NCBI GenBank assembly: GCA_036338595.1
Contig: JAYZBV010000051.1
Coordinates: forward strand, 1-10,973
From: Planctomycetota bacterium
GTDB taxonomy: Bacteria > Planctomycetota > UBA8108 > UBA1146
Direction of reading: 5' to 3'
Length of the DNA: 10,973 bases
Under the pieces are notes generated by a model. The model was not told where the DNA came from, ran no database searches, and saw nothing but the letters and a program-made list of their open reading frames with translations. Shown piece by piece: positions 1-2,701 of the stretch (position 1 is its first letter; each line of letters starts with the position of its first letter). Position numbers and translations under genes: made by a program.

Positions 1-1048
1 TTGCTCGTTCGAGTGCAAGGCGCTCGACCTGACAGCGGATCACCTGCTCGCAGACATGGAAATACTCGCCATAAGTTGGATCGAGCAGCAATACACGGCT
101 CTCTGCTGTAAGCCACTGACAAAATGCAAGAAAGATCAAACTGGATGAACCGGCACCCGGAAGGATATGGGCCGCGGGCACTGCGCGAGCAGCAGCGATC
201 GCCTCGACCAGACCCTCACAGCCGGTCGGAGGAGATGTGCGAAGTAGCCAGTCGAGGTGTTCGCCGAGGGTCGAAAGGACTCCGGGAGCAGGAGCGAACC
301 ACGCATCGAGCACATCTGCATTGATGATCTCCCGGCGACGGGACAGGGTCTGAAAATCCTCGCCCACGTCGCGGAAGAAGCCGCCACCATGAAAACAAGC
401 AGCCGGTCTTCGCAAGGGCACCGTCAATTGCCAGTCGACCATCCGTTCGATCCGCGACAGCAATCGTGGGCTGTCATCGACCACCTGCCTTACCTGTTGC
501 ACGGTGGCACTCATCAGCTGGAAGTTCACAGCGCCCCGGGTCAACTCGATGCCATGGTCCTGGAATCCACTGCTTTGATAGATGGAGGCGATCTCGGTGC
601 GACCGATCACCATCATCCGTTGCCCGCCAGCGGCCTCCACCGCCCGGAAGGCGGCATACATCAGTGCCGGGGCCAGCAACGATCCTCGATGACCGGAGAC
701 CACCGTCAGCAATCGGACCTCGTAGAGGGCATCCGACTCGTCGAAGGGCCACTGCGAACGAGGGATGTAACTGTCGAGGGAATACTCCCCCCCTTCGGGC
801 GGAGTGATGCTGATGTATCCGGCTAACTGGCCATCGACGACCGCCACGAAGTAGCGATTGAAGTCGTCCAGATGATTCTTCAGCACACCTTCTGGATGGA
901 TACCATGCTGGCCGAGTTCGATGGCATAGACATCATGGCGGGATCGGTAGATCGCCTGACGATCCTGCTCGGTGGCCTCTCTGAGAACCATCCTGGAAGC
1001 AGAGGACGTACCATCGTTACCGTGGATCAGGTCCTGCCCAGATTGCAT
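1..1048 (-). CDS. GNAT-type acyltransferase fused to a class I/II PLP-dependent (HisC/CobD-like) aminotransferase or decarboxylase; 3' end lies outside the window
   Basis: Not in the ORF track because there is no stop in the window. Manual translation from ATG 1048 (alternative ATG 991) gives 349 open codons: MQSGQD...MVLREATEQDRQAIYRSRHDVYAIELGQH...YFVAVVDGQLAGYISITPP...LYEVRLLTVVSGHRGSLLAPALMYAAFRAVEAAGGQRMMVIGRTEIASIYQSSGF (GNAT fold), then CFHGGGFF (aa ~218-225)...INADVLDAWFAPAP...LVEAIAAARAVPAAHILPGAGSSSLIFLAF...VLLLDPTYGEY (HisC/CobD-type motifs). The PLP-binding lysine is beyond the edge. Confidence 0.85.
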   Translation of the reverse strand, partial: MQSGQDLIHGNDGTSSASRMVLREATEQDRQAIYRSRHDVYAIELGQHGIHPEGVLKNHLDDFNRYFVAVVDGQLAGYISITPPEGGEYSLDSYIPRSQWPFDESDALYEVRLLTVVSGHRGSLLAPALMYAAFRAVEAAGGQRMMVIGRTEIASIYQSSGFQDHGIELTRGAVNFQLMSATVQQVRQVVDDSPRLLSRIERMVDWQLTVPLRRPAACFHGGGFFRDVGEDFQTLSRRREIINADVLDAWFAPAPGVLSTLGEHLDWLLRTSPPTGCEGLVEAIAAARAVPAAHILPGAGSSSLIFLAFCQWLTAESRVLLLDPTYGEYFHVCEQVIRCQVERLALERA

Positions 1049-2701
1049 CTACTTGGCTACCGGCTCACCGCAATAACACGATGCCGGTGGCATCACATCG
1101 GCACTTCGCCACGCTTTCCGAAACGCCTGGTCGATTCGAGCCGCTTCATCGGCTCGCCTCTGACCGCGCAGTGCATCGCGAAGGCCAAGCAGCGCCCAAC
1201 CGTTGGCGGGAAAGAAGTCGAGATCTCTCAGATAAACCTTCTCGGCATCCTTGTACCGCCCTGCCACGATGAGTAGCGCTCCGTAGGCATGTCGAGCTGG
1301 CATCATCCAGGCCGCTGGCTCGGTATACTCGAGGCGTTCCTCCACCTCGATCGCCTGGGCCAGCAACCCGAGTCCCTGGTCACGATTTCCGGCCTTGAAT
1401 TCAATCTCACCGGAAAGCACCAGCCGCGCCAACACCATCACCTCGACAGCCGGCTGACCACCGAGGTCCCAGTCCTCGGCGGGAATCGCCTTGACCGCTT
1501 CATCAAAAGCAGCCATTTCCGTACGTGCCTGTTCAATGCGCCCGGTGTTGGCATAGGCGATGCCGCGAGCGTAATGACGCAAGGATCGTCCAATCACCGC
1601 CCATTCCGGCGGAGTCGGTTCGGTCAGAATCGCTTCCCACATGCCAAATCGGACCAGCACGTGCCACTTGCAGGAGGCGACTCCATCGCTGATGAACCCG
1701 AGTGCCTCCATCACCGGCGCCGGGACTTCCTCGGTGATCGCACGCGCAGAGGCCACCGCTTCACGACGGCGACCCTGCATCGTGGCTGCGAAGGCCAGGA
1801 AGTGGCGGTTGTGGGCCATGTAGAACCGATATTCACCGGCGTTCGGATCCCCTTCGAACCATGCGTCATCGAGCGCCGCAGCGCGGCGGTTGCAATCGGC
1901 AGCATCATCGTAACGCCCGGTCTGCATCCAGATATGAGATGGCATGTGCACCAGGTGACCTGCCGCTGGAATCAAGTCGATCAGGCGATCGGCCGCGGGT
2001 TCGGCGATCTCGGGCCAGGGAGACGATTCCATGACATGGATGTAGAGATGGTTTGCCGCAGGATGGTCGGGATGACGTCTCATCACGCCCTCCAGGATGG
2101 CTCGAAACTGGGGCGTAAGGTCGAGCGGCTCTCCATCGAGCGACCAGTATTCCCACGGCTGAGTCACCATCATCGCTTCTGCGGTCCAGGTCGCCACATC
2201 GGGATCCATCGGGAACTGATCTCGGACCTTCACCATCGCATCGAGGTAGGCCTGGTTCTGATCGGTCAGATCCTCCGGTGCGGGATACTGGTATCGATGC
2301 ACTAACGCCTCGATCAAGGCGCGATTGGCGCCGCTCTCGCGGCCCTTCAACTCGAACGCCCGCTGGGCGGCGGCGTAGGACCACTGGTCCTTGGGCTCAA
2401 CGATGGTCGGATTGTTCTGGTTCGGACCGGACGAGTAGGCGATCGCCCACCAGGCCATGGCGAAATCAGGATCGATGGTGGTCGCCTGCAGAAACGATGC
2501 GATCGCCCCATCGAAGTTGAAGCCGTACATCAGGGCGAGACCCTGATCAAACCACTGGCGTGCTTGCGCCGAATCGGTGGCTACCGGACGACGATGTTCA
2601 CCGAGTCGCTCCAGGATCATCGGAGGTGGTGCTACAACTTCAGGAAGAGCAGGTTCATCCACAGGAGAGATGGTAAGGGCAAGGATTAGCGGTAGGAACA
2701 T
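1049..2701 (-). CDS. Exported TPR-like alpha-helical protein with His motifs (550 aa)
   Basis: Track ORF 1049..2746. The better start is ATG 2701 (GGAG 7 nt upstream, hydrophobic N-terminus MFLPLILALTISP). It has TPR-like segments (AIASFLQATTIDPDFAMAWWAIAY; GRYDDAADCNRRA; YGALLIVAGRYKDAEKVYLRDL), the motifs HLYIH, HLVHMPSHI and HNRHFL, and a C-terminal SCYC. Confidence 0.85.
   Translation of the reverse strand: MFLPLILALTISPVDEPALPEVVAPPPMILERLGEHRRPVATDSAQARQWFDQGLALMYGFNFDGAIASFLQATTIDPDFAMAWWAIAYSSGPNQNNPTIVEPKDQWSYAAAQRAFELKGRESGANRALIEALVHRYQYPAPEDLTDQNQAYLDAMVKVRDQFPMDPDVATWTAEAMMVTQPWEYWSLDGEPLDLTPQFRAILEGVMRRHPDHPAANHLYIHVMESSPWPEIAEPAADRLIDLIPAAGHLVHMPSHIWMQTGRYDDAADCNRRAAALDDAWFEGDPNAGEYRFYMAHNRHFLAFAATMQGRRREAVASARAITEEVPAPVMEALGFISDGVASCKWHVLVRFGMWEAILTEPTPPEWAVIGRSLRHYARGIAYANTGRIEQARTEMAAFDEAVKAIPAEDWDLGGQPAVEVMVLARLVLSGEIEFKAGNRDQGLGLLAQAIEVEERLEYTEPAAWMMPARHAYGALLIVAGRYKDAEKVYLRDLDFFPANGWALLGLRDALRGQRRADEAARIDQAFRKAWRSADVMPPASCYCGEPVAK

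Follow-up and report, generated by a model that had tools for sequence, protein, structure and literature searches.

What does a protein make that carries a GNAT domain and a PLP enzyme on one polypeptide? The question is raised by an open reading frame at one end of the window, by which we mean the whole stretch of DNA analysed here, 10,973 nt long and comprising all of contig C51. An earlier note on this DNA had read one uninterrupted frame leading from a GNAT domain into a PLP domain that begins with HGG at residue 220, and both the frame (1048..2, minus strand) and its motifs are present as described. The same note had the GNAT domain at about residues 20-185; the GNAT fold stood, but it extends to about residue 206. 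The frame runs off the contig end, and the features of this region are the following.

2..1048, minus strand: 5' part of the GNAT-PLP fusion gene, 349 codons without a stop, of a protein of about 590 aa
1048 and 991: candidate starts, an ATG at 1048 abutting the stop of the upstream TPR gene and, as an alternative, Met20 at nt 991
431..991, minus strand: GNAT domain of the FeeM/Acetyltransf_5/LuxI branch, aa 20-206, assigned by profiles and fold
911-955, in the minus-strand ORF: AIYRSRHDVYAIELG motif
701..724, minus strand: YEVRLLTV strand, holding E110 and R112
392..430, minus strand: short interdomain linker, about aa 207-219, from the AlphaFold model
2..391, minus strand: N-terminal third of the PLP domain, fold-type-I class I/II, CobD/HisC-like, aa 220-349
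383..391, minus strand: HGG motif at aa 220, corresponding to His8-Gly9-Gly10 of Salmonella CobD (1LC5)
299..316, minus strand: DVLDAW, family-specific, in place of the CobD/HisC NINP/NENP segment
1049..2746, minus strand: gene for a TPR protein, upstream, abutting the fusion start

In the window ORF, Pfam recognizes a GNAT domain at residues 56-181 (PF00583, E 2.7e-4, just over the cut-off) and an Aminotran_1_2 fragment at 277-334 (E 0.018), and the top NCBIfam match is CobD (E 3e-7). The window neighbours encode the TPR protein, a homocysteine S-methyltransferase, DUF1553/DUF1549 and DUF1501 proteins, a desaturase and a 3-keto-disaccharide hydrolase; as the earlier note had it, neither Pfam nor NCBIfam found his or cob genes among them. 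Since the TPR gene lies next to the fusion in close relatives only, it is probably not part of the fusion system. The TPR gene (window 1052-2700) is 90-93% identical to that of relatives whose fusion gene is 71-78% identical, a mismatch that suggests, as far as sequence identities can tell, recombination or gene exchange at the locus. Parts of the stretch were found in 20 runs, 18 of them labelled, all as marine, seawater or marine sediment.

An assembly artefact as the source of the fusion was ruled out by contigs that span the domain junction, together with full-length relatives. Contig X5 (record 15) of another run covers nt 279-914 with 0 differences and contig X3 (record 9) of another run covers nt 244-598 with 4 differences, while each of the best 120 relatives in the database matches the 586-aa full-length form over 92-100% of its length, at 52-100% identity. 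No contig in the bin overlaps the truncated end, and one other contig extends it by 31 bases only. The complete protein is seen in relatives. The bin, G000 (2.9 Mb, 88% complete, 7% contaminated), contains contig C68, a syntenic copy of C51 at 70-80% identity, with 70-76% measured between the nucleotide sequences, which encodes a complete 586-aa form (P0001) 76% identical to the window protein; the closest complete relative, P0010, is 85% identical and 598 aa long, and close full-length relatives span 586-598 aa. Both P0001 and P0010 carry NPNSPTG, DETY, SMSK..SGVR, PPW and two C-terminal arginines, so that the fold-type-I class I/II motifs NP-x-PTG, D-E, S-x-S-K and G-x-R are all present. The PLP lysine motif sought downstream is intact in P0010 (SMSKAYALSGVR) and in P0001; in the window allele the contig stops short of this region. 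A confident AlphaFold model (pLDDT 92.4), built on 87 sequences, places the GNAT domain up to about residue 208 and the PLP domain from about 220. Compared with four relatives, both domains are under purifying selection, with dN/dS of 0.17-0.25 for the GNAT domain and 0.07-0.14 for the PLP domain.

Some 143 kb of bin sequence is present twice, at 68-85% identity, which indicates that the bin is a mixture of related organisms. On C68 the TPR gene is missing and an ABC-transporter cluster has been inserted. With 91% identity to P0001 and synteny with C68, a database record titled 'Bacillota bacterium' (L038) is probably mislabelled.

To which branch of the GNATs does the N-terminal domain belong? 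The window's own domain matches generic models only, without a FeeM match. Among 48 family GNATs, at E<=0.01, Acetyltransf_1 was matched by 48, FeeM by 44, Acetyltransf_5 by 43 and Autoind_synth by 7; P0001 scores 18.7 bits against Pfam FeeM (PF21926), below the cut-off of 27, which some other family members pass. The Atlas placed the domain with FeeM/Acetyltransf_5 clusters (0.97). A sequence search of the PDB gave nothing with the single GNAT sequence and only weak generic matches with a profile. Folded alone, the domain gave BjaI as the top Foldseek match (E 8.7e-9, TM 0.72), and the top matches as a whole were CoA-dependent short-chain AHL synthases and generic acetyltransferases. With VIA-align the top folds were TofI, RpaI and FeeM (Z 15.4-15.5, 169-184 residues aligned; Z 14.9-15.5 with MesI and LasI included), and alignments to LuxI/FeeM folds span 168-184 residues against about 140 for generic GNATs; a generic GNAT, glyphosate N-acetyltransferase, reached Z 14.8, so the LuxI/FeeM margin is under 1 Z unit. 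E110 and R112 of YEVRLLTV (E91/R93 in alignment numbering) do not vary among the 48 aligned family GNATs, in what we take to be the FeeM/LuxI catalytic strand with its catalytic Glu. Profiles and folds thus bear out the assignment to the LuxI/FeeM branch made earlier, GNAT folds being returned by both Foldseek and VIA-align, and the evidence from sequence and model supports a place for the window GNAT in the FeeM/Acetyltransf_5/LuxI acyl-amide branch. Because the fold margin is narrow and the window domain falls below the FeeM model, the acyl group need not be long-chain, and acetyl is possible.

Nearest to the window GNAT clade in a 36-row tree is P0141, a GNAT fused to PlsC (SH-aLRT 98), and stand-alone GNATs of the same clade exist, as do fusions to other domains. 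P0141 and P0271, the two PlsC-GNAT fusions seen, have no PLP domain. Residues 1-150 of another relative, P0251, form a hydrophobic extension without a Pfam match, which by eye presumably resembles PAP2/sphingomyelin-synthase-type domains.

The C-terminal domain matches Aminotran_1_2 (E 1.4e-39), and its best profile and structure matches are CobD and HisC, to whose folds it is about 22% identical. P0001 scores 182 bits against the CobD model TIGR01140 (cut-off 290.55) and 165 bits against the HisC model TIGR01141 (cut-off 276.55), below both cut-offs. The 36 family rows of a 69-row quick tree fall together in one clade on a long stem (SH-aLRT 100 in that tree), apart from the CobD-like and the HisC-like rows. 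The view that the domain is CobD-like at its HGG start without being a canonical HisC or CobD thus held, and no clustering with true HisC or CobD was seen. HGG is invariant in 87 of 87 aligned members, as are H222, N379, D407, K438, R446, R546 and R561 (P0001 numbers). H222, R546 and R561 align with CobD His8, Arg323 and Arg337, presumably the substrate-phosphate site of that enzyme, and if these roles carry over, their conservation would favour a 2-aminoalkyl phosphate as the product, which is what the chemistries of HisC, CobD and SMUL_1544 share. As read from its motifs, the predicted active site is a mosaic of CobD-like, HisC-like and unique elements; replacement of the CobD/HisC RYPD tyrosine by SPP in the fusion suggests that it is altered.

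The genomes agree with this picture. hisD was found in none of 25 genomes of the host order and in 6 of 6 from other orders of the class, hisB in none of 5 genomes of the host order tested, cbiB in none of 31 and cobS in none of 5 (genomes 74-95% complete); five distant carriers have other, separate HisC-like genes. Judged by scores, tree and gene content, the PLP domain of the fusion is predicted to be neither HisC nor CobD. That neither hisD nor hisB turned up in these genomes of the host order, nor a canonical serC in 19 genomes of the family, makes histidine auxotrophy possible. Another HGG-type class I/II PLP family, seen in two relatives (L200, L201), lies near CobD in the tree, although cbiB was not found in their genomes.

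The fusion family is patchy but widespread. Among 31 related genomes the fusion is present in 12 and a PLP-only form in 3, and one or the other occurs in 13 of 301 Planctomycetota genomes and in 8 of 301 from Verrucomicrobiota, the phylum of Haloferula. Further fusions come from Acidobacteriota, Rhodothermales, Kapaibacterium and one spirochaete, and 8 plasmid records of Streptomyces carry the gene at 45-49% identity. Named relatives are Planctomycetota MAGs, three of them labelled UBA1146, and cultured carriers are Haloferula rosea, Terracidiphilus gabretensis, Luteolibacter soli and Streptomyces atratus. The 4,020 matches of the database search include distant PLP enzymes and are no measure of family size.

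The whole fusion is also carried by two IMG/VR contigs (L203:5995-7602 and L204:6007-7536), one named as a giant-virus MAG, with Erv1/Alr, XRN and DnaJ genes nearby, the other surrounded by viral-looking unknowns. Both retain the PLP motifs, and the GNAT domain of L204 is divergent. The phage collection held no full-length match, a viral search with P0260 returned no match to the pattern, and in the viral fold library generic GNATs were the sole matches. A comparable divergence is seen in four database proteins (P0251, P0254, P0260 and P0262), of which P0254 clusters with L203.

PLP-only members turn up at scattered points of the tree, having arisen several times. Those at L050, L058, L060, L067, L068, L025, L026 and L236 have the same active-site motifs, and L236 sits inside an Aas operon. 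A GNAT of the window clade was absent from four of the five PLP-only genomes searched, the fifth having a class V fusion, and such genomes suggest that the PLP product is useful without the GNAT.

Do the neighbours of the fusion tell what is acylated? In the window's own lineage the gene is an orphan among unrelated neighbours, and an all-against-all BLAST detected no neighbours conserved across phyla outside close relatives. Of 124 fused loci, 19 have PlsC or CdsA within 4 kb, compared with 1.2% of positions drawn at random in G000; that background comes from this one genome, and related loci among the 124 count separately. Seven of the 19 had served to build the probes, 1 is a duplicate, and together they represent about 5 operon types. 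The remaining 105 loci, every window-family locus among them, have neither gene in the flank (mean 5.9 kb). Around 6 of 8 Verrucomicrobiota matches, one of the 6 being PLP-only, there is an MFS gene with an Aas-type (PlsC-AMP-binding) gene and a hydrolase gene, and the same MFS/Aas-type setting recurs at L111 and L051. At L054, L125, L133 and L152 a fabG-fabD-fusion array faces a fabZ-like gene and plsC, and L089 has the fabZ-like/plsC side of this setting. At L064 plsC overlaps the fusion start, with an MMPL gene behind, and at 4 of 5 Streptomyces plasmid loci examined the fusion overlaps a CdsA-family gene. These lipid-gene neighbours in several lineages would fit an acylated-amine product.

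A homologous GNAT is also joined to a different PLP enzyme. Contig C10 of G000 encodes a GNAT fused to a class V (PhnW/AepZ-like) enzyme, with a plsY-like gene directly upstream of the fusion (C10:7121-9295, equivalent to L002:4122-6296), and the pair is found in 5 congeners and on 2 Bacillales plasmids as well; FeeM/Acetyltransf_5 plus Aminotran_5 fusions are common in Bacillota. The two GNATs are related (hhalign 97%, E 2.9e-11) and fall in separate clades of the 36-row tree. The C10 protein is likely of the N-acyl serinol synthase type. Both fusions co-occur in G000 and in 6 of 8 congeners, which speaks against both making serinol phosphate and suggests that the class V and class I/II fusions have different products. 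A membrane protein encoded 3.7 kb from the class V fusion (L002:1-936, minus strand) has no Pfam match and by eye resembles dolichol/phytol kinase-type proteins.

We propose, with some reserve, that the fusion is probably a single-polypeptide two-step synthase that makes a 2-aminoalkyl phosphate and then N-acylates it. The PLP domain would first make the small 2-aminoalkyl phosphate. Granted the model, this could quite possibly be serinol phosphate from transamination of DHAP, though with less than an even chance; ethanolamine phosphate from decarboxylation of O-phosphoserine is possible too, if held a little more loosely, and something else, for example a product from phosphohomoserine, is rather unlikely. 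The GNAT domain would then acylate the amine with a fatty acid drawn from acyl-ACP or acyl-CoA, giving an amide resembling lyso-phosphatidic acid. Where PlsC/Aas or CdsA genes are attached, this product would be O-acylated or CDP-activated and become a membrane lipid; with a solitary gene such as that of the window, loss of the phosphate may leave a free N-acyl amino alcohol. As to substrate supply, canonical SerC was found in none of 19 genomes of the family, but genes that look by eye SerA-like, AGT-like (class V) and ThrB-like (a kinase) do occur; the two GHMP kinases examined in G000 resemble, again by eye, IspE and ThrB, not PduX. These substrate-supply genes disfavour Thr-P only.

Part of this scheme had been anticipated in the earlier note, namely that an amine is made and then acylated. 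The lipid-gene neighbours fit such an acylated amine, but the PLP-only members, mostly in genomes devoid of the clade's GNAT, sit less well with it. They are what a looser association would predict, in which the PLP domain works as a separate transaminase or lyase on an amino acid or phosphoamine and the GNAT, like FeeM, acylates an amino acid that is already present. The PLP-only forms in 3 of the 31 relatives and their scatter in the tree speak for such an arrangement, as do the stand-alone clade GNATs and the GNAT fusions to other domains. It nevertheless looks improbable to us, because the fusion is retained at 43-57% identity over many phyla and viruses, both domains are under purifying selection and a sister GNAT clade is joined to a different class of PLP enzyme.

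A coupled enzyme might instead release a small acetylated or short-chain product, such as a signal or a detoxified amine, rather than a lipid. The short-chain synthases and acetyltransferases that head the Foldseek list would agree with this, as would the match of every one of the 48 members to generic Acetyltransf_1 and the fact that most loci, the window's included, have no lipid neighbour. To this reading, too, we give little weight, given that fusions in unrelated phyla repeatedly lie beside Aas, FabD/FabG, PlsC and CdsA genes, that a PlsC-GNAT fusion exists and that the alignment to LuxI/FeeM folds is longer than that to generic GNATs. A HisC or CobD that has diverged and carries an accessory GNAT would explain the best profile and structure matches of the protein, the database name 'histidinol-phosphate transaminase' and the hisB gene adjacent to the fusion at one metagenomic locus (L119). 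We regard this as very improbable, since the scores stay below both cut-offs, the family forms its own fully supported clade, hisD, hisB, cbiB and cobS were not found in the genomes surveyed, and other carriers have separate HisC-like genes.

Beyond the two-step synthase itself, a broader proposal, which we consider doubtful as a whole, would place it at the committed step of a so far undescribed pathway to amide-linked phospholipids that does without serine palmitoyltransferase. Such lipids would mimic ceramide or phosphatidic acid, with serinol phosphate or ethanolamine phosphate as their backbone. One GNAT lineage would have recruited PLP enzymes twice, a class V enzyme together with PlsY and a class I/II enzyme together with PlsC/Aas/CdsA, and the module would have spread over many phyla and into giant viruses, which could use this one gene to remodel host or virion lipids.

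Bacterial N-acyl amides are membrane lipids and host-receptor ligands, and we know of few N-acyl amide synthases that have been assigned. If the proposed function is right, the fusions would be candidate genes for orphan amide lipids of marine Planctomycetota and Verrucomicrobiota, and giant viruses would carry a lipid function. If it is wrong, the analysis still corrects a widespread misannotation, because databases call the family 'histidinol-phosphate transaminase' even in lineages in which no histidine pathway was detected. The fusion is one soluble protein with cultured carriers.

How does the fusion compare with known systems? Relative to CobD (1LC5) and SMUL_1544 (6OUX) it shares the HGG start, the PW motif, the Arg323/Arg337 equivalents and the fold, with a TM of 0.90 to the CobD chain, but has DETY for DEAF/DESF, LDAW for NINP and SPP for YPD, plus the fused GNAT; the position of the DETY tyrosine is Phe in 1LC5 and 6OUX and Tyr in 3FKD. 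With HisC it has in common the fold, the DExY tyrosine, the S-K motif and the PLP-stacking tyrosine, whereas the N-terminal Tyr and NENP motifs of HisC are missing and the clade is separate. On the GNAT side, profile, fold and the E-x-R strand place it in the same branch as FeeM and the LuxI-type AHL synthases; those are 13-20% identical to it and single-domain and use existing amino acids or SAM, whereas the fusion adds a PLP enzyme.

The closest parallel in architecture is the N-acyl serinol synthase of Gemella. The Gemella nas product, in the work of Cohen et al. in 2017, is said to be a fusion of an Acetyltransf_5-type N-acyltransferase with an aminotransferase, and we take it to be a member of the class V fusion family. 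As in that presumed architecture, the GNAT of the window protein is fused N-terminally to a PLP enzyme, but here the partner is class I/II and CobD/HisC-like rather than class V; the name Gemella does not appear among the best 120 of a homologue listing. The claim of the earlier note that no characterised enzyme has such an architecture was too strong, in that one nas gene of Gemella haemolysans gives N-oleoyl serinol in E. coli according to a preprint (bioRxiv 10.1101/2025.04.11.648385). hm-NAS products have been described (PMC11271093, PMC10666787), NAS enzymes take acyl-ACP (PMC8762209), and RtxA forms serinol phosphate from DHAP by transamination (PMC3222319). The OlsB/OlsA system, in which N-acylation by a GNAT is followed by O-acylation by a PF01553 enzyme (PMC11631085), matches the PlsC/Aas neighbours of the fusion; OlsB, however, takes a ready-made amino acid without a PLP step, and the window lineage has no adjacent O-acyltransferase. 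In the literature covered, largely open-access, no study of a GNAT-HisC/CobD-like class I/II fusion was found. The logic of a GNAT plus an aminotransferase has a precedent, and it is the class I/II partner of CobD/HisC type that seems to be the new element.
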